IMG/VR virus record: IMGVR_UViG_3300020036_009452
Span: 1-64,000 of that record
DNA length: 64,000 bases
Origin: a virus
Taxonomy: Duplodnaviria; Caudoviricetes
Direction: 5' to 3' (one strand)
Shown in pieces: positions 1-8,265 of the stretch (positions are counted from its first letter, which is position 1; every line of letters begins with the position of its first letter). The position numbers and the translations under genes are program-made. Below the pieces are notes generated by a model. It did no database searches and was not told the DNA's origin. It saw nothing but the letters and a program-made list of their open reading frames with translations.

Positions 1-14
1 GACTTGTAAAGAAA

Positions 15-73
15 ATCCCGCTAGCTAACCTACAGTTCTACTAAATAGTAGTCTGATGAGAGGCTGGCGGGAT
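15..73 (+). other. Long imperfect RNA hairpin upstream of the ribozyme
   Basis: ATCCCGCTAGC (15-25) pairs with GCTGGCGGGAT (63-73); inner hairpin CTACT-AAAT-AGTAG. Confidence 0.55.
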
Positions 74-87
74 ACTACCCATTGTAA

Positions 88-148
88 ACTCGTCTGAGCG
101 AGTATAAATAGATTTTTAAGCTTAGAGCGTCCAATTATTGGGGTAAAT
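88..148 (+). ncRNA. Pistol self-cleaving ribozyme
   Basis: P1 ACTCG/CGAGT; loop TCTGAG pseudoknots with CTTAGA (121-126); conserved TAAATAG, TTAAG and GCG; P2 ATTT/AAAT; P3 TCCAA/TTGGG; G143-U144 cleavage dinucleotide. Matches the known pistol consensus element by element. Confidence 0.9.
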
Positions 149-149
149 A

Positions 150-239
150 GAATAATAGTGGAGGGAATCTGGTGTAGAGCGCGGCGTATGTACGAACTAG
201 CACACCACTGTTATTCACATCCCAGTGCCTGAACGGGAT
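150..239 (+). promoter_or_regulatory. Structured 5' leader of the first CDS
   Basis: GAATAATAGTGG (150-161) pairs with CCACTGTTATTC (205-216); second hairpin ATCCC (219-223)/GGGAT (235-239). Confidence 0.5.
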
Positions 240-269
240 TCATAGAAGGCAATATTCAAAATTAATAAA

Positions 270-938
270 ATGACACACCTTAAGTTCAACGATGAACTCT
301 TATTAGTGGATGTAAAGAAAGAGGAAGATGATTACTTCCACTGCACAGTTTGGAAGCTCGATGCCAACGGCAATGCAGAACCAAATCCAGCTAGGGAGAT
401 CTACCAAAAAGACGTATTCAAACGCCTCCAAAGGGCATACCGCGTGCACACAGCAGGCACCTTTATGACCCTCAATGGAAATGTTGTTGTGTCTCCAGAG
501 TGGGAACGTTCGTGGTTTGCAACACCTACTGGTGAGTTTCTCCGGTTTTTGTCACATGATGAGCAGGAAAGGCTGCTGTGGGATTGTCCACAGCTTATTT
601 ATAAAGCCGATCGCCCAGAGTTTGAACTCCCTGTAATGTGGGAGCTTATTCACGAAACACCAGAAACACGATATTTTGTGAGATCTCGTAAACGAGGCAA
701 TCCTACATTCCTGAAACTGCCCATAATTGGAGCCGGTGAAGGGGACGCACTATACACCGTGATCGGAGCTAATGTTGCTCTAAACCATCCAGGCCCAGCC
801 TTTGAAAATTACTACGATCTAGTTCTTGACAAAATAGGTGTGATGATGAATTTCAACGAAATGATGGCTGAGATCCCAAATGATCTGGTAGCCTCATACA
901 TCGTAAACCAAAGACAAGAAGGTAAACAGTCCAAGTAG
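270..938 (+). CDS. Hypothetical protein (222 aa)
   Basis: ORF with AT-rich leader; TAG stop. Confidence 0.75.
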   Translation: MTHLKFNDELLLVDVKKEEDDYFHCTVWKLDANGNAEPNPAREIYQKDVFKRLQRAYRVHTAGTFMTLNGNVVVSPEWERSWFATPTGEFLRFLSHDEQERLLWDCPQLIYKADRPEFELPVMWELIHETPETRYFVRSRKRGNPTFLKLPIIGAGEGDALYTVIGANVALNHPGPAFENYYDLVLDKIGVMMNFNEMMAEIPNDLVASYIVNQRQEGKQSK

Positions 939-958
939 ATATCTCACCCATGATGATA

Positions 959-1016
959 GGCCGCAACTAGAGTAGAATAGCACGTAAAATGTTACTAACT
1001 ATTTGATGTTGCGGCC
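959..1016 (+). other. Intergenic stem-loop
   Basis: GGCCGCAAC (959-967)/GTTGCGGCC (1008-1016), perfect 9-bp stem enclosing further pairing. Confidence 0.55.
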
Positions 1017-1034
1017 ACCTTAAATTCTCCCAAA

Positions 1035-1226
1035 ATGAGTAAAAAAATTATTTTGATAAGCGTCCTCTTGCTTTTCGGACTTCTGTTAGAATTTATTGCT
1101 GACGACTTATGCGAAGAAGTGATGGGAAGAACACTGCCCATTTATATGAAGCTTCTATATACTGTTCAAGGGTTAATTCTTGCTCTTGCAATAGAGTTAT
1201 ATAGGAGCTGGCGAAAAGAACAATAA
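1035..1226 (+). CDS. Small membrane protein (63 aa)
   Basis: Two hydrophobic segments; AT-rich leader. Confidence 0.65.
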   Translation: MSKKIILISVLLLFGLLLEFIADDLCEEVMGRTLPIYMKLLYTVQGLILALAIELYRSWRKEQ

Positions 1227-1336
1227 TACTCACACGCAAGAGTAATAAGAAACTTCAACCATATTTTTTTGGTTTTAGGAGCAGACGTAATGTTAGCTCC
1301 TATTTTTCAATCTAAAAACTTTAATCCACACACAGA

Positions 1337-1579
1337 ATGAAAAAGCGTATCATTTTCCTATTTGCATTTACCCTGATCGTCCTTGCTTTCTGGCAATTTG
1401 ACGAGTATCAATATAGGCAAGAGCGTGATAACTCGGTTTATTTGGCGGTCGTCGCTAATAGACCAGACCACGAATTCAAAATCACCCTGTCAGCAGGATA
1501 CAAGCCGTGGGACCTTGTTCTAGAAAAATACCGAGGAAAGCCCACTTGGCTCCAAATACGGGAGATAATTGAAAAGTAA
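1337..1579 (+). CDS. Small membrane-anchored protein (80 aa)
   Basis: MKKR followed by a hydrophobic N-terminus; TCTAA leader. Confidence 0.65.
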   Translation: MKKRIIFLFAFTLIVLAFWQFDEYQYRQERDNSVYLAVVANRPDHEFKITLSAGYKPWDLVLEKYRGKPTWLQIREIIEK

Positions 1580-1600
1580 TTGTGATAGCGGTCATAGCAT

Positions 1601-1627
1601 GGGGTGCTGCCAAATTGGTGGTGCCCC
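1601..1627 (+). terminator. G.U-rich hairpin (terminator or processing site)
   Basis: GGGGTGCTGCC-AAATT-GGTGGTGCCCC, 11 bp with G.U pairs that work only on the + strand. Confidence 0.5.
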
Positions 1628-1668
1628 TTGACCATTTAAAATTATCTAGTTTCTAAAATTCAAAACGC

Positions 1669-2013
1669 ATGACTCTACAACAATTGGCAGCCGAGCTGCC
1701 ACCACTACCAGAACCAAGCCTCATTGGTCTTTTGGACTTGGCTTCAAGTCGCATAGACGAAGAGGGCCAAGTGAAACAGCCACAAACCATCATCAATGAA
1801 GCGCACCGTATTGTGCGTTATCAAAAATGGCTCAAACATCGGCTCGAAACCATGGCTTTGAATGCGGCCTGGAAAAAGCTGATGAACGAAAAACTCGACT
1901 CACGCACCCAGCGTAATTCCCGAACCAAGAAGGCCCGCTACAAGGGGCGTAAATCCACCGCGAAGAATCATGTGAAACACACTATGCAGTTTGTTGTTGC
2001 TCCTATGCTTTAG
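1669..2013 (+). CDS. Hypothetical protein with basic C-terminus (114 aa)
   Basis: ORF with TCTAA leader; TAG stop. Confidence 0.65.
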   Translation: MTLQQLAAELPPLPEPSLIGLLDLASSRIDEEGQVKQPQTIINEAHRIVRYQKWLKHRLETMALNAAWKKLMNEKLDSRTQRNSRTKKARYKGRKSTAKNHVKHTMQFVVAPML

Positions 2014-2164
2014 TTGCACACAACCGACTGCCCCGCCCGACATGCCTCTGATAACATATACACCGAGGGATTCAACCGGCGAACCAAAATTGATTGAAAG
2101 ACCGCAACTAACCAACTTCGTGAGGAGTTCTGGCAATGTATACGGCAATCCACTGGCACTTTAG
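1970..2164 (+). CDS. Putative small lipoprotein; TGA at codon 2 if started at ATG 1970
   Basis: ATG-TGA-AAC reads M(W)NTLCSLLLLLCFSCTQPTAPPDMP, a lipobox-like signal; an alternative TTG start lies a few codons later. Confidence 0.35.
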
Positions 2165-2314
2165 ATGAGAAAATATGCACCTGTTATGCAGCTGTGTATT
2201 ACACTTATCCAGAAAGGCCCTTATTTGACTTCTAAGCCACTTTCTAGTGGCAGTAGTCCTCTCCCACACCTAACCCATGAAATGCGCTCTAAGGCCCATT
2301 TTTATGCGTTTGGA

Positions 2315-2382
2315 GGCACTATGGCATTGGGCCAAACTCCCCCTGAACAGAGAATTAGTAGGTTCGACTCCTACTGGTGCCA
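2315..2382 (+). tRNA. tRNA-like element 1 (degenerate D and anticodon arms; possible GAA/Phe loop)
   Basis: Acceptor GGCACTA/TGGTGCC plus discriminator A; T-arm GTAGG-TTCGACT-CCTAC; anticodon stem TCCCC/GAGAA pairs only 3 of 5. Confidence 0.55.
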
Positions 2383-2432
2383 CTTGATGAAAAATTTAGT
2401 GACTAGGACTGATGAAATATTAGTTCTATTCT

Positions 2433-2509
2433 GATTCTGTAGCTCAATGGTAGAGCACCCAAGAACCGTTTGGCACGGGAGGTTGCAGGTTCGAGCCCTG
2501 TCAGAATCA
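2433..2509 (+). tRNA. tRNA-like element 2 (expanded, non-canonical anticodon arm; identity unclear)
   Basis: Acceptor GATTCTG/CAGAATC; D-arm GCTC-AATGGTA-GAGC; T-arm GCAGG-TTCGAGC-CCTGT; region between D-arm and variable loop is 22 nt rather than 17. Confidence 0.7.
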
Positions 2510-2535
2510 CATTTTCTAACTAAAACCATATAATT

Positions 2536-2919
2536 ATGGCCGCACAACTTCCATTTTTCTCAACGTGCCCCTTGATTCAAGCAGATATGACTGCTAAATA
2601 TCAGAAACGGGTCACCAATCGTCTCTCCAAAGGTAAAGACATCTCCCTTGTGGAGATCGTCAAAATCAAGGAAGCTCTCTTGACTGAGGCAAACAAGGCC
2701 ATGCAAGATCGAAATGATCGCAGGGCAAAAGCAATCACCCAACAAACCCGCCAGGCAGAATTGGCCGTCAAACGGCTGGCCGAAGCCCCATTCAAAGCTG
2801 AAAAACTCAAAGCTCGGGCTGAACGCAGAGCTGCAAATCGTGCAGCACGTGCTGCTATCAGCCTTGCAAAGAAATATCAAAAACAGTTCAAACATCAACA
2901 AACTCAAGTTGTACTATGA
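2536..2919 (+). CDS. Basic, Ala/Lys-rich helical protein (127 aa)
   Basis: TCTAA leader; ends TGA in an ATGA overlap with the next start. Confidence 0.75.
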   Translation: MAAQLPFFSTCPLIQADMTAKYQKRVTNRLSKGKDISLVEIVKIKEALLTEANKAMQDRNDRRAKAITQQTRQAELAVKRLAEAPFKAEKLKARAERRAANRAARAAISLAKKYQKQFKHQQTQVVL

Positions 2920-3407
2920 AAAGCTTACTCACATTTGCATTGATGTTTACTTTGTTAAATGTCACGATTTCACAGTCTCTCTCCTTCACAGTTGACGTAA
3001 AAATTACAGGTAGTGAGGCAAAAGAACTGGCAGCTATCCGCCAGCTGTATCGATTGCCTGTTGACCAACGCACTAATAATGCGATTGCTTACCCGGCTAA
3101 AATCGAAAACCCATTGTTCACTGTGAACACCGTGACCGGGGAAGTAGATTTGAAAATCTATAATCAGCAAATATCCGAACCCAAAGTTCTGGGGGAGGCT
3201 TACGATCGGGCTACTGGAACCCACAAGTTCTGGTATACCTATGGAACCTGCGAAGAACAGCCAGAATACGAAATACTGTTGTACGAACGACAAGGAGAAA
3301 CTTACATCTCGGTCACTCATTGTGGAGAAAAGACCCTAGTGATGGGGAACTTCTACCTAGCCAAAATATTTGATCCATGGCAACCGAGGCAGACGTATTC
3401 GCAGTAG
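2916..3407 (+). CDS. Putative secreted protein (163 aa)
   Basis: Signal-peptide-like MKSLLTFALMFTLLNVTISQS. Confidence 0.7.
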   Translation: MKSLLTFALMFTLLNVTISQSLSFTVDVKITGSEAKELAAIRQLYRLPVDQRTNNAIAYPAKIENPLFTVNTVTGEVDLKIYNQQISEPKVLGEAYDRATGTHKFWYTYGTCEEQPEYEILLYERQGETYISVTHCGEKTLVMGNFYLAKIFDPWQPRQTYSQ

Positions 3408-3622
3408 CTATCCTATTGATACTGTTTTTGCTCGGTGGGCTGTTGCCATATCATTTGTACCGGCGGAAAACACGACAGTACATGGAAAATACGATAGCTT
3501 CGGGGTCGAGAGCTCCGAAAGATCATTTTGAGAACCAAAAGAACAGGGGGAAGGTTTCCTTCCTCCTAATTCTAATTGGACTATTTGTGGGCTATGCCGT
3601 ATGGCGATTCTTCACTAACTAA
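3377..3622 (+). CDS. Small two-TM membrane protein (81 aa)
   Basis: Two hydrophobic stretches. Confidence 0.6.
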   Translation: MATEADVFAVAILLILFLLGGLLPYHLYRRKTRQYMENTIASGSRAPKDHFENQKNRGKVSFLLILIGLFVGYAVWRFFTN

Positions 3623-3631
3623 AAAAATCAC

Positions 3632-4465
3632 ATGCTTACAACAATTGCGATTATTTACGTCACTTGTTTGATTCTGGTCTTTCCTATAGCATTTGTCACA
3701 GACACACTAGTGATGGGGCCAGAGTTGACACCCATCAATCGTTTTACCCGGCTTAAGGATGCCTGGAAGAATACGGAAATCTTTAACGATACTATCGAAT
3801 CCTTTCAAGTTGGCAAACCACGTGAAATTTTCCTGTACTGGTTTGTATTGGGGCCTTTTACTCTCCTCATTTCAATTTTCGCACTATTTTGGGAGCTTTG
3901 TAAACCTCATAAGTATATTAAAGTCCCATATGTGATAAAGGAGTCCTTGGCATATCCCTATAAAGTCACAAAAAAAGGCATAACCCTTTGGGCACAAAAA
4001 CTGGAAATCAACCTCATCAACCTCAATTATGTCCGACTAATTGGTAATAAGGGGTATCTGGAGCGCGACATAAATATCTTTTGGATTCTTGAAGCCTGCA
4101 TAGAATATTACCCAGCGCCTAACATTGTAGCCTTCTGGAATAAATTGGTCCGCGTCCCTTTGGACGAAATGATCGGTTTATACTACACGAACCGAGTAGA
4201 AATTGTTGAACGCATGCCTGGTAATTTGCGCATGCATTTCTCCAACATGTTACGCTCTACCAAAACACGTGAAGGCGCCAAAATATCAGGCACCTTAGAT
4301 TATTACCTGCATTATGTTCAGCAGATCATTATAGATTACCCTGACGCAATGCATTGGAATCACCCGTATCTAAAGATCAAGTATGCCTTGATAAATGAAA
4401 AGACAAAGGTCATACAAAAAATCGAAGCTGCTTATGAAAAAGAAGAGCATAAAGGAAACAATTGA
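3632..4465 (+). CDS. Membrane-anchored hypothetical protein (277 aa)
   Basis: N-terminal hydrophobic segments; TGA stop. Confidence 0.7.
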   Translation: MLTTIAIIYVTCLILVFPIAFVTDTLVMGPELTPINRFTRLKDAWKNTEIFNDTIESFQVGKPREIFLYWFVLGPFTLLISIFALFWELCKPHKYIKVPYVIKESLAYPYKVTKKGITLWAQKLEINLINLNYVRLIGNKGYLERDINIFWILEACIEYYPAPNIVAFWNKLVRVPLDEMIGLYYTNRVEIVERMPGNLRMHFSNMLRSTKTREGAKISGTLDYYLHYVQQIIIDYPDAMHWNHPYLKIKYALINEKTKVIQKIEAAYEKEEHKGNN

Positions 4466-4793
4466 AGATGACGCCTATGTGTTGATAGGCTGCCACAGCA
4501 CTTTCACGGTTATTGGTGCACTTGTTTTACTCAAAACAATGGGTAATTCATCTGCCGTACTGATTTGGAATTCGATTCATTACTGGCTAGCTCATGAAGT
4601 ACTACCAGATTACGATCAATTGCAGCGAAAATTCTACGCTGCTGAGGGTAACCAGAATGACAAATTCTGGTGTTGGACTACAGACGACCGATTGATAGAA
4701 ACTAGTTGGTCTAATCCAAAGTCGTTTTATGCGCCAGATTATGATGCAGCAATTGACTATTCGGATAAGGTGCTGGGAATTGCTCCCAAATAG
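4395..4793 (+). CDS. Hypothetical protein (start uncertain)
   Basis: ORF track; TAG stop. Confidence 0.55.
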   Translation: MKRQRSYKKSKLLMKKKSIKETIEDDAYVLIGCHSTFTVIGALVLLKTMGNSSAVLIWNSIHYWLAHEVLPDYDQLQRKFYAAEGNQNDKFWCWTTDDRLIETSWSNPKSFYAPDYDAAIDYSDKVLGIAPK

Positions 4794-5194
4794 ACATACC
4801 AATCCCCTAGCCCATTAAAAGGCTAATTGTCGCTAGACCGTGTTTCATAATAAAGATTTGTTTGACTGGCAGTGCTATAAAACCCACTGTAGAAGGAGAA
4901 CTGCTTTATCGTAATGCAGCTGAACGACACGATTGGATACGTACTAGGAGAGTTTGATGACATTACAGTCAACCTCTTCTACAGATCACCAGAAATTTAT
5001 GTTCTTTATTTAGTTTTATTGGTATCGGAGAAAATCCCTATTACAGGGCAATCCGACTTCTAAGCCACCTCGTGTTAGATTATTCAAGTCTACTGCTTGG
5101 CTGATCCAGGAGTACTCTCTTCCTGGCCAATATACAAAGATACAAAATTTCTTGGCTCATTGCACAAAACACTTATCACTAACTTGACAAAGTA

Positions 5195-5641
5195 ATGCTC
5201 TTCTCCATATCATTCCTTCAAAGTTGGGCACAACAACAGGATTTTCCGCTCGTAAAAGAGGCAGAAAAGAATATAAAGTACAATCGATTTCGTCTTGTGC
5301 TCTCAGTCCTGTATGTTATTGCCCACCGCAAAGCCGCCAAAGACGTACGTGACGTCCTGAAAGAAACACGCAAAAACCTATTACCGGTGCCAAGCGCCAT
5401 GTCTGACTTCCTGGACTTCCTCACGGAATTTCATCAGGCCGTCTTCCGGGCGCCAGCACATCTATTTTTAACTTACGAAAGCCTTCTACCACAGGAGGCC
5501 GAACCACATTTTGTCACAGTCCTAACTGAATACATGATTTTCTCACAGCCTACAGGTAAAGATGACTATTTGTCGCTACTGTCGGCTTTGAAAGAACTGG
5601 CTCGGTTAGGAGCCATTAATTTCACACATGATACTGACTGA
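5195..5641 (+). CDS. Hypothetical protein (148 aa)
   Basis: ORF; TGA stop (readthrough would span the whole next gene). Confidence 0.65.
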   Translation: MLFSISFLQSWAQQQDFPLVKEAEKNIKYNRFRLVLSVLYVIAHRKAAKDVRDVLKETRKNLLPVPSAMSDFLDFLTEFHQAVFRAPAHLFLTYESLLPQEAEPHFVTVLTEYMIFSQPTGKDDYLSLLSALKELARLGAINFTHDTD

Positions 5642-5897
5642 GTTACATCAAGCCCTGCTGCTTGCCGGCGGCTTAATCTTAATGATGATCCTTCTCATCG
5701 CCTTCCGCCCAAAACGGAAACCCATAAACCTGCGCCACAAGGCCAAGGCCCAGGCAGAAACCAGACTCCAAGGAATCTTGGATTTGCCTGAATCTGAGGC
5801 TGTTGCGGCCTTGCGGGCGATCCGCGATACCTACCAGGAAAAACTGCGCCTCATCCAGTTAATGGAAAACGATGAGGCTTTCCAAAAAATACTTTAA
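5628..5897 (+). CDS. Small membrane protein (89 aa)
   Basis: N-terminal TM segment followed by a basic patch. Confidence 0.65.
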   Translation: MILTELHQALLLAGGLILMMILLIAFRPKRKPINLRHKAKAQAETRLQGILDLPESEAVAALRAIRDTYQEKLRLIQLMENDEAFQKIL

Positions 5898-5916
5898 TCG
5901 ACCCAGGGACAACAAG

Positions 5917-6002
5917 ACATCCATAAAGATGGGTGTTGGACATCTGATTCTACACTAGTATCCCAACGCTCAATCCCTGTAAGAGGGGGGTAGTAAGTGT
6001 AG
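5917..6002 (+). promoter_or_regulatory. Structured leader of the GH73 gene with alternative pairings
   Basis: ACATCCAT/ATGGGTGT hairpin competes with GGGTGTTGG (5931-39)/CCAACGCTC (5963-71); CTACACT/AGTGTAG stem (5950-6002). Confidence 0.4.
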
Positions 6003-6027
6003 AGTTTTCATTCTAAATTATTCAAAC

Positions 6028-6801
6028 ATGAGTCAAATTAAAATTATTCCCGCGGCGCCAACAAAATCGCCACCCACTTTTTTTCAAGCTTTCACGGCCG
6101 CATTTGCGATTTTCTCAAAAGTACGCGGCTTTGAACGGACATCGCTCTACGCGCTGACCTTCATCTTGCTGGCCTCCTTTATGGGAGTGGGTGCCTGGGT
6201 GGGCACTTTTACAGCCCACCCCAAAACCATAATCATCCCGGTGGAAAAGATCAAGGGGGTGGAAAAAATCCCTGAGGTCATGGCAGCCCCAGTGGAATCC
6301 ATTTTCATTGCCCCGCCCGACGATGTAAACCCGCCAGATCCAGCACCTGCAATCAATGTTGACAAGTTCAACCCAAAGGCGTATATTGCCAAATTCAAAA
6401 ATGCAGCTCAACAAGGGATGCGGAAATATGGTGTGCCGGCGAGCATCAGTCTTGCACAAGGGCTGATTGAAAGCCGTGCGGGTACCAGCAAACTGGCCGT
6501 GAGCAACAACAACCACTTTGGGATGAAGTGTTTTGCGCGAAATTGTCGTAAAGGTCACTGTACCAATCATACCGACGATACTCACAAGGATTTCTTCCTA
6601 AAATTTAAAAATGCCTCCCTAAGCTGGGAAGCCCATGGGAAGCTAATCTCGACTGGTAGGTATGCCAAGCTCAAGAAATATGGCCGCGATTACAGGCGAT
6701 GGGCAACAGGCTTAAAAGCCGCAGGATATGCCACAGACCCTACCTATGCCCAAAAACTCATCGGCGTTATTGAGCGATACAAACTATATCAATACGACTG
6801 A
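6028..6801 (+). CDS. Membrane-anchored GH73 glucosaminidase/muramidase (FlgJ-like)
   Basis: PASISLAQGLIES, NNHFGMKC, GYATDPTYAQKLIGVIERYKLYQYD motifs; N-terminal TM segment; TGA stop at the family-typical C-terminus. Confidence 0.9.
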   Translation: MSQIKIIPAAPTKSPPTFFQAFTAAFAIFSKVRGFERTSLYALTFILLASFMGVGAWVGTFTAHPKTIIIPVEKIKGVEKIPEVMAAPVESIFIAPPDDVNPPDPAPAINVDKFNPKAYIAKFKNAAQQGMRKYGVPASISLAQGLIESRAGTSKLAVSNNNHFGMKCFARNCRKGHCTNHTDDTHKDFFLKFKNASLSWEAHGKLISTGRYAKLKKYGRDYRRWATGLKAAGYATDPTYAQKLIGVIERYKLYQYD

Positions 6802-6819
6802 ATGATTAGCCCACCCCCT

Positions 6820-6861
6820 AGTGTGATGGTCGCAGGGGAGGTTCGACTCCTCCCCACACTT
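6820..6861 (+). ncRNA. tRNA-like minihelix (acceptor stem plus T-arm only)
   Basis: AGTGTG/CACACT stem; T-arm GGAGG-TTCGACT-CCTCC; only about 11 nt where the D and anticodon arms would be. Confidence 0.45.
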
Positions 6862-6875
6862 CTAACAAATTAAAT

Positions 6876-7226
6876 ATGCGTAAACTAATTCTCTTTTTTC
6901 TCCTGCCGACAGTTTGCTTGGCTCAAGGAATCCGAAATCCCTCATACAACCGCTACGAGATGCGTGTTGTGTGTAAGGGGAAAATCATCCGAGAAGGTAT
7001 ATTGGAAAGTGGTGCTTGTATAGAAAACATGCAAGTATTCCAAGAGGTAGAGGTTTTCTACCGTGTGATTTTTAAGCGGTGTGACACCGAAAATCCTGAG
7101 AAACCAATCATGGAGACCCTGCCAATTGTTAAAAACACTCCATTACCGAATGGCTGGAAAATGGTCAAGGTTCCGCCTAACGTTATTCAAAATTTACCAT
7201 TACAAATCTGCCCGCAGAGGGTATAA
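6876..7226 (+). CDS. Putative secreted protein (116 aa)
   Basis: Signal peptide MRKLILFFLLPTVCLAQ. Confidence 0.65.
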   Translation: MRKLILFFLLPTVCLAQGIRNPSYNRYEMRVVCKGKIIREGILESGACIENMQVFQEVEVFYRVIFKRCDTENPEKPIMETLPIVKNTPLPNGWKMVKVPPNVIQNLPLQICPQRV

Positions 7227-7239
7227 AAAAAAACTTAAC

Positions 7240-8265
7240 ATGGATTTACACGACATCCGCATAGAATTGAATAAACAATTCTTCCAAGCGGAGAAACCAA
7301 TTGACGCAATCCTTCTTGCAATTCATCGCAAGAAAAATTGTATTCTCTACGGCCCACCAGGGCACGCCAAAAGTCAACTCGTCGAAACAGCCCTCAAGTT
7401 GTTGTTGGGGGAGGAAGCCTTTTATGAAGAGGTGTACCAGACAAACGGTGGACTGGAAATGCCCACCAGTCCATTTATTGGTACTCTGGACATCAAAAAG
7501 TACCAGGAAACCGGCCAGGAGGTGTACAACTTAGAGGATACGGTGTACTTGGCCAATAGATTTGCCATCATCGAGGAAGGGCTGGACATGCCAGCGTATG
7601 CGATGGAAACCATGAAACAACCACTCATGAGCGGCACAATTTGTGTGAATGGCAAATGTCATAAAAACAGATTGGAAACCTTATTCATCTGTACCAACCA
7701 TAATCCTATGGCGTGGGCAGGTGATTCGGATTCATTGAAAGCCGCTATTGCACGATTCCCGCACCGCGCTCCGGTAATGTGGGCAGACTATTCCCTTAAT
7801 ACCTGGGTGAATTTCTTCCAATTCAAAGGCACCCCTGATGACTACGCTGCACAGATTGTGGCTAAATGCCATTCCATGGGGTACAAAGTGTCGCCCCGAA
7901 CAGCCGTACAGTTCCAAGAGCTCCTCGCTATGGGAGGGGTTGCTGCTCTAGAATACTATGACGATATGGCAGAACATCCCGCGGTGTACAAGGCTCTTGT
8001 GGCTCTTTCGGCATCCATTCCTTTTTTCAAGGAACTCGCCGCTATTGAAAGCTTGGTTGAGTCAGCAGCAACTGCAGTTGGACGTAACGATCCAGCAGCT
8101 GCAGGGAAAATCGGCATCGCCAAAAAAGCCATAAAGGATCTTAAGGGTATTCCAAAAGATACGTCATTCACTGACAGGCTGCGTACTGCCACCCTGGCCC
8201 TTTCGACTCTGACTGAGGCTGTGGAACAAGCGGCTGCAAAGCAAGTTAACTCACCAGTATTATGA
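7240..8265 (+). CDS. MoxR/RavA-like AAA+ ATPase
   Basis: Walker A LYGPPGHAKS, Walker B AIIEEG; start moved to ATG 7240 after an A-rich leader; ATGA overlap with the VWA gene. Confidence 0.85.
   Translation: MDLHDIRIELNKQFFQAEKPIDAILLAIHRKKNCILYGPPGHAKSQLVETALKLLLGEEAFYEEVYQTNGGLEMPTSPFIGTLDIKKYQETGQEVYNLEDTVYLANRFAIIEEGLDMPAYAMETMKQPLMSGTICVNGKCHKNRLETLFICTNHNPMAWAGDSDSLKAAIARFPHRAPVMWADYSLNTWVNFFQFKGTPDDYAAQIVAKCHSMGYKVSPRTAVQFQELLAMGGVAALEYYDDMAEHPAVYKALVALSASIPFFKELAAIESLVESAATAVGRNDPAAAGKIGIAKKAIKDLKGIPKDTSFTDRLRTATLALSTLTEAVEQAAAKQVNSPVL

Follow-up and report, generated by a model that had tools for sequence, protein, structure and literature searches.

A compact pistol ribozyme predicted in the non-structural gene block of a crAss-like phage

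The pistol class of self-cleaving ribozymes was reportedly described by Weinberg et al. in 2015. The class is treated by Harris et al. (2015; PMC4604425), and the env25 pistol structure 5K7C is reviewed in PMC6154101. The class-defining feature is a 6-bp pseudoknot (PMC4604425; PMC6154101). In env25, purine-32, G33, G40, C41 and G42 are active-site and triple-forming residues adjacent to the G53-U54 cleavage site (PMC6154101; PMC4604425). The association of pistols with phages was already made in the founding papers of 2015 (PMC4604425). Each well-placed natural pistol is a possible test case for what the class does in nature.

Phages are known to process their RNA between cistrons. In the early mRNA of phage T7, hairpins between cistrons are processed by host RNase III; these are stable hairpins with internal loops, and they stay at the boundaries as protective ends of the products. 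Small ribozymes also flank genes in phages and prophages, as with the HHphage type, where they are found on the coding strand between or ahead of small genes of varying identity (Perreault et al. 2011, PMC3088659). In haloviruses HF1 and HF2, an early transcript whose 5' end was mapped was described in 2011 to have a hammerhead there, and clustered hammerheads are a precedent for the processing of long phage transcripts (PMC3088659). Division of phage transcripts is a role which has been proposed for phage ribozymes but never proven (PMC3088659; PMC6765202). The pistol class, its phage association and intercistronic phage ribozymes are thus all already published. What is new here is an unannotated pistol in a crAss-like phage. 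General knowledge of the class is left unchanged by this copy, and the additions are modest: the class occurs in crAss-like phages, where its location across from the packaging (portal/terminase) and structural block recurs; a pistol can be very compact; and both predicted cleavage products would be capped by stable hairpins.

The window analysed here is a stretch of 64,000 nucleotides, bases 1-64000 of a linear 89,427-bp IMG/VR record (G000) estimated to be 89% complete. The contig lacks terminal repeats, and its two ends do not overlap. Metagenome contigs were scanned for exact matches to its first and last 30 nt, and none was found; there is likewise no DNA match in 50,697 INPHARED phage records. 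The phage, which is uncultured, is crAss-like; one virion protein has a Crassvirus cargo protein 1 domain. From 270 to about 35.7 kb every gene is on the plus strand, which is also the strand of the pistol, and the large structural genes are on the minus strand. At the end of the contig, the minus strand also encodes the portal (82954-85362), the large terminase (85322-87568, split under code 11) and, adjoining the terminase gene, a GroEL-type chaperonin (87561-89165, or 3561-5165 of locus L003; Pfam Cpn60_TCP1, E 4.5e-66).

The window was searched with cmscan against all 4227 families of Rfam 15, and the search was repeated on 1-3000 with permissive filters. Two gathering-level matches were found in the 64 kb: Pistol (RF02679) at exactly 88-148 on the plus strand, and a tRNA. 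At 63.3 bits, the pistol match scores almost double the gathering score of 34.5 bits, and its E-value over the 64 kb is 3.6e-9. It spans model positions 1-68 of 68 and is not truncated. The first-pass annotation had called a pistol at these positions from the letters alone and had proposed this very search; the call is borne out. No other Rfam family is present in the remaining 25 kb of the genome. The pistol is thus a single copy in this genome, and neither the sequences flanking it nor the hairpins described below have copies elsewhere in it. The second match is a tRNA-Gly(ACC) with a 16-nt insertion in the anticodon region (2433-2509, plus strand), found by both ARAGORN and Rfam. It is accompanied by a second tRNA-like element which is below threshold (2315-2382, plus strand; 24.9 bits). 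Both elements are on the same strand as the pistol, 2.2 kb downstream.

The 61 nt of the ribozyme contain every element of the class, and pairs were read by script. P1 (88-92 with 99-103) has five Watson-Crick pairs: A88-U103, C89-G102, U90-A101, C91-G100 and G92-C99. The P1 loop UCUGAG (93-98) pairs with CUUAGA (121-126) to form the pseudoknot. This has six base pairs, five of them Watson-Crick (U93-A126, C94-G125, U95-A124, A97-U122 and G98-C121) and one G96.U123 wobble. The covariance model cannot score this helix, so the pseudoknot is independent support for the pistol call. P2 (112-115 with 145-148) consists of four A-U pairs, A112-U148, U113-A147, U114-A146 and U115-A145; G111 and A149 are unpaired. 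P3 (131-134 with 138-141) consists of C131-G141, C132-G140, A133-U139 and A134-U138, closed by a UUA loop. The AAA-containing linker AUAAAUA (104-110) and the core segments UUAAG (116-120) and GCGU (127-130) match the consensus; the linker, UUAAG (A119, G120) and GCGU (G127, C128, G129) fall on upper-case consensus positions in the cmscan alignment. From our own alignment to the env25 sequence, we take A119, G120, G127, C128 and G129 to be the equivalents of env25 purine-32, G33, G40, C41 and G42. The junction G142 G143/U144 is located between the end of P3 (141) and the start of P2 (145). The cleavage site predicted in the first-pass annotation, between G143 and U144, is supported by the RF02679 model, and the structural description given there, including the G.U in the pseudoknot, is right throughout. 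Positions 88-148 should be annotated as a ribozyme.

The locus thus resembles the pistol class in its three stems, in the 6-bp pseudoknot between the P1 loop and the left P2-P3 junction, in the linker, core and G/U junction, and in its intergenic position in a phage, which is usual for pistols. It differs in being compact, with 61 nt against a consensus of 68 positions, in a P2 of only four pairs which are all A-U, and in a P3 of four pairs with a 3-nt loop. The host also differs, being a crAss-like phage and not a Firmicutes prophage. In a set of 41 viral pistols, P2 and P3 of this copy are both at the short end of the range, and its P3 is the second shortest of those measured. With both stems minimal, the predicted activity could be low or condition-dependent. 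The GGU junction is common in this set (31 of 41, the window's own counted in). Relative to the window's pistol, P1, the pseudoknot and P2 of the other viral pistols often change on both sides with pairing kept; it should be noted that the set was partly selected for pairing, so these two-sided changes mainly restate the published covariation. In the nested minimum-free-energy fold, UACCC at 76-80 pairs with GGGUA at 141-145, across the cleavage site. This pairing would mask the site; it may be a competing structure or may be due to chance.

The pistol lies between two strong hairpins. The upstream one (15-73, plus strand) is very stable at -28.8 kcal/mol (z -5.3), and is within about the top 0.15%, or the approximately 20 most stable, of the 70-nt windows of the genome. 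Its lower stem of 12 bp includes two G.U pairs and is followed by a 6x6 internal loop and a short upper stem-loop. It is not followed by a U tract and is not a terminator, and it matches no Rfam family at E up to 10. A nuclease or a protein might act on it at the border between cistrons. The downstream hairpin (150-216, plus strand) is long and imperfect, and begins six nucleotides past the predicted cleavage site. A stable hairpin here was part of the earlier description and it is real, with -21.5 kcal/mol and a z of -2.6 against shuffles. A small hairpin (219-239, plus strand) follows between it and the first open reading frame (ORF) in the minimum-free-energy folds of 1-275 and of 144-245; the 144-245 fold as a whole is modestly better than shuffles (z -1.8). 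Both large hairpins are weaker on the minus strand, where 15-73 has -22.2 kcal/mol and a z of -2.9 against shuffles and 150-216 has a z of -1.1. The plus-strand preference is partly due to G.U pairs. It fits a role at the RNA level, with transcription entering upstream of the pistol.

The symmetric internal loop of hairpin 15-73 contains CUGAUGAG. A hammerhead reading of this segment at 53-60 was considered and rejected. No hammerhead family matches at E up to 10 in 1-3000, and the region folds as a single long hairpin instead. By eye, the order of CUGANGA and GAAA is also wrong, as the GAAA at 11-14 precedes the strand which pairs with the bases after CUGAUGAG. A search for a further ribozyme, cut off by the start of the contig, likewise gave nothing at E up to 10.

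The first long ORF downstream (270-938, plus strand, from the ORF list) encodes an orphan protein of 222 amino acids. Its start codon lies 122 nt past the end of the ribozyme. The protein belongs to no PHROG or Pfam family, and relatives of it, or of the ATPase encoded at 7081-8265, are absent from IMG/VR. Among 5.8 billion proteins, the only match is a truncated copy of itself; the contig encoding this copy starts at window position 287 and therefore adds nothing upstream. The window has only 87 nt of sequence ahead of the pistol, which thus sits at the assembly edge, and no promoter-like site was found in 1-87.

Some pistol loci encode homologues of genes at the end of this contig, as found by tblastn with the ORFs of this genome. 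A portal-protein search among pistol-bearing records identified six relatives (G001, G002, G009, G011, G015 and G033). In 6/6 of these the pistol is on the strand opposite the portal and 8-17 kb away, with the distance counted across the contig ends for G015 and G033. Joining the ends of our contig directly would put portal and pistol about 4.2 kb apart; this shortfall fits several kilobases missing between the contig ends. About two to seven ORFs on the same strand precede the pistol in the four relatives examined in detail. There are seven in G001, about two to three in G002, and six in G033, which is complete with a 114-bp terminal repeat; G011 is the fourth. The G033 pistol fills the gap between two ORFs, starting 49 nt past a stop codon and ending 14 nt before the next ATG, and the G011 pistol similarly fills a gap of 100 nt. 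In G002, too, the pistol is followed at once by a long hairpin. Beyond the ribozyme itself, no sequence conservation was found in the flanks among the relatives, the segment equivalent to 144-245 included, and tblastn found no neighbouring protein common to their pistol loci and that of the window. What recurs is therefore a kind of place and not a gene partnership, and the likeness in position may come from the type of region and not from a common function. In this phage, the pistol belongs to the part of the non-structural block which is made up of variable small genes.

The earlier placement of the pistol at the head of an early gene block is not supported, as the contig is 89% complete and starts 87 nt upstream, and the relatives have ORFs ahead of their pistols. 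The impression of a block start comes only from where the contig begins, 87 bases ahead of the pistol, and base 1 should be taken neither for the end of the genome nor for the start of an operon. In this lineage the pistol recurs near the start of the non-structural block but not as its first element.

The reading which we hold to be probable is that a complete, compact pistol on the plus strand cuts a longer transcript at an internal boundary of a crAss-like phage block. The RNA would adopt the pistol fold, with P1, the pseudoknot, P2 and P3 all formed, and would cleave itself at G143/U144 by internal phosphoester transfer, a reaction which would depend on divalent cations. In the upstream product, the 3' terminus would be a 2',3'-cyclic phosphate, and the folded ribozyme body and hairpin 15-73 would lie close to it. 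For the downstream product, it is reasonable to expect an RNA with a 5'-OH six bases before hairpin 150-216, carrying ORF 270-938 and later genes. In bacteria, nucleases which depend on the 5' end enter poorly at a 5'-OH next to a stem, and 3' exonucleases are slowed by structure at the 3' end; we propose that the fates of the two RNA segments would thus be uncoupled. A polycistronic transcript would in this way be divided, and the stability and translation of neighbouring segments would no longer be coupled. We infer transcription through the locus, cleavage in vivo and the effect on RNA stability; the family, the anatomy, the strand and the context in relatives are observed.

This proposal is close to the systems described above. 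As in T7, RNA processing is proposed to occur between cistrons in the early region of a phage, with hairpins at the boundaries. Unlike in T7, the cut would be made by the RNA itself and would leave a 2',3'-cyclic phosphate and a 5'-OH, and hairpins 15-73 and 150-216 are at most candidate nuclease sites. The locus is like the gene-flanking ribozymes of phages and prophages, the HF1/HF2 hammerhead among them, in having a small ribozyme on the coding strand. As with the HHphage type, the small phage genes which it separates or precedes vary in identity, and the proposed role is to cut long phage transcripts into shorter units (PMC3088659). It differs in that the ribozyme is a pistol and not a hammerhead, and is a single copy and not an array. 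The structured leader before the ORF is also long, with 122 nt compared to 13 nt in HF1 and HF2.

Another reading develops that of the first-pass annotation: the pistol would be in a leader right behind the first promoter of the block, and the first early mRNA would owe its mature 5' end to the cleavage, as happens with the hammerhead in HF1 and HF2 (PMC3088659). Nothing recognisable precedes the pistol on the contig, and every gene beyond it has its orientation; with the ends directly joined, a divergent gap of approximately 310 nt would separate the last minus-strand ORF (start 89382) from ORF 270. However, the contig is incomplete, with neither terminal repeats nor overlap at its ends, and the portal distances in relatives suggest missing sequence between them. 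G001, G002, G011 and G033 all have same-strand ORFs before the pistol, the 87 nt upstream are without a promoter-like site, and the plus-strand preference of hairpin 15-73 suggests that transcription starts further upstream. We consider this reading unlikely, and an internal boundary more likely than a true 5' end of the first transcript. It is far less likely still that the match arose by chance or is a decayed, inactive relic. Minimal P2 and P3 stems would be expected of a relic, but the E-value holds over the whole window, the scored helices and the unscored pseudoknot are all intact, every conserved core base is that of the consensus, and a comparable position is occupied by a pistol in six related records.

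The ribozyme might also mature a non-coding RNA by trimming the 5' end of the structured segment 144-245, as may happen with the GOLLD RNA in one relative. This relative, G001 (L123, G001:C1), shares the portal and terminase. On its minus strand are a pistol (837-912) and a GOLLD 3' domain (94-475; RF02032, 197.9 bits), with no long ORF in the approximately 360 nt between them. Cleavage by the G001 pistol could determine where the GOLLD transcript begins. On the plus strand of G009 (L126, G009:C1:108000-113000), a GOLLD-like RNA (2025-2424) is located 280 nt upstream of the pistol (2704-2765); its score of 117.8 bits is below the cut-off of 150 (E 4.5e-31). Both GOLLD matches among 48 pistol-bearing records thus adjoin a pistol, and the 122 nt between the window's pistol and the first ATG are structured. 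The 89.4-kb record, however, gives no match to GOLLD (RF02032), whether at gathering level or at E up to 10, and in 1-3000 the tRNA region is the only other place with an Rfam match. The fold of 144-245 is only modestly better than shuffles, and its sequence is not conserved among the relatives. Adjacency of pistol and GOLLD is also rejected as a general rule: in a regular-expression search, a pistol-like motif was found in only 1 of 88 GOLLD-bearing viral loci, and that one (L019) is G001 itself. The pairing is therefore local to a few phages, and maturation of a non-coding RNA is very unlikely in the window. Cutting at an internal boundary is the reading we retain. In a wider version, a broad range of crAss-like phages would have the pistol as a conserved landmark in their proximal non-structural block, where it would act as an RNA-lifetime boundary and in some phages mature GOLLD. 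This is improbable; if true, the lineage would be a tractable natural system for learning what pistols are for.

The first-pass annotation regarded a ribozyme of this kind in a phage as uncommon. This does not hold, as the link between pistols and phages is published (PMC4604425) and many viral contigs have similar motifs. The pattern ATAAATA-N4-7-TTAAG-N6-GCGT, searched with no pairing requirement, matches more than 119 viral contigs in IMG/VR, which is a lower bound. At least 82 of the matches (at least 55 distinct) also have P1 and pseudoknot pairing. RF02679 is above threshold in 45 of 48 records tested, and 14 of those records have more than one pistol; G039 carries seven. G036 (L127, G036:C1:2500-10500) contains six above-threshold pistols and one hammerhead within 7 kb (202-6891, plus strand). 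The hammerhead is of type III and near threshold (42.6 bits against a cut-off of 48.5). Each of these ribozymes separates two small ORFs which run in the same direction, and most are 13-18 nt ahead of the following ATG; by its layout the region is a putative ribozyme-punctuated operon.

Context statistics were collected from 40 other distinct viral pistols with a locatable 3' end. The median placement is 72 nt past a same-strand stop codon and 36 nt before an ATG-initiated ORF on the same strand, and the next same-strand ATG is within 50 nt in 20 of 37. The distance of 122 nt in the window is longer than in most viral pistols. A downstream hairpin was considered as a general partner of viral pistols and rejected, as the downstream 70 nt are strongly structured (z below -2) in only 6 of 39 others; the structured leader of the window is therefore a minority form, one which G002 shares. 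Two unrelated-looking loci, L016 and L114, have the common motif GCAYGAAGTTTG followed by a hairpin just past the 3' end of the pistol. This may be another conserved RNA element.
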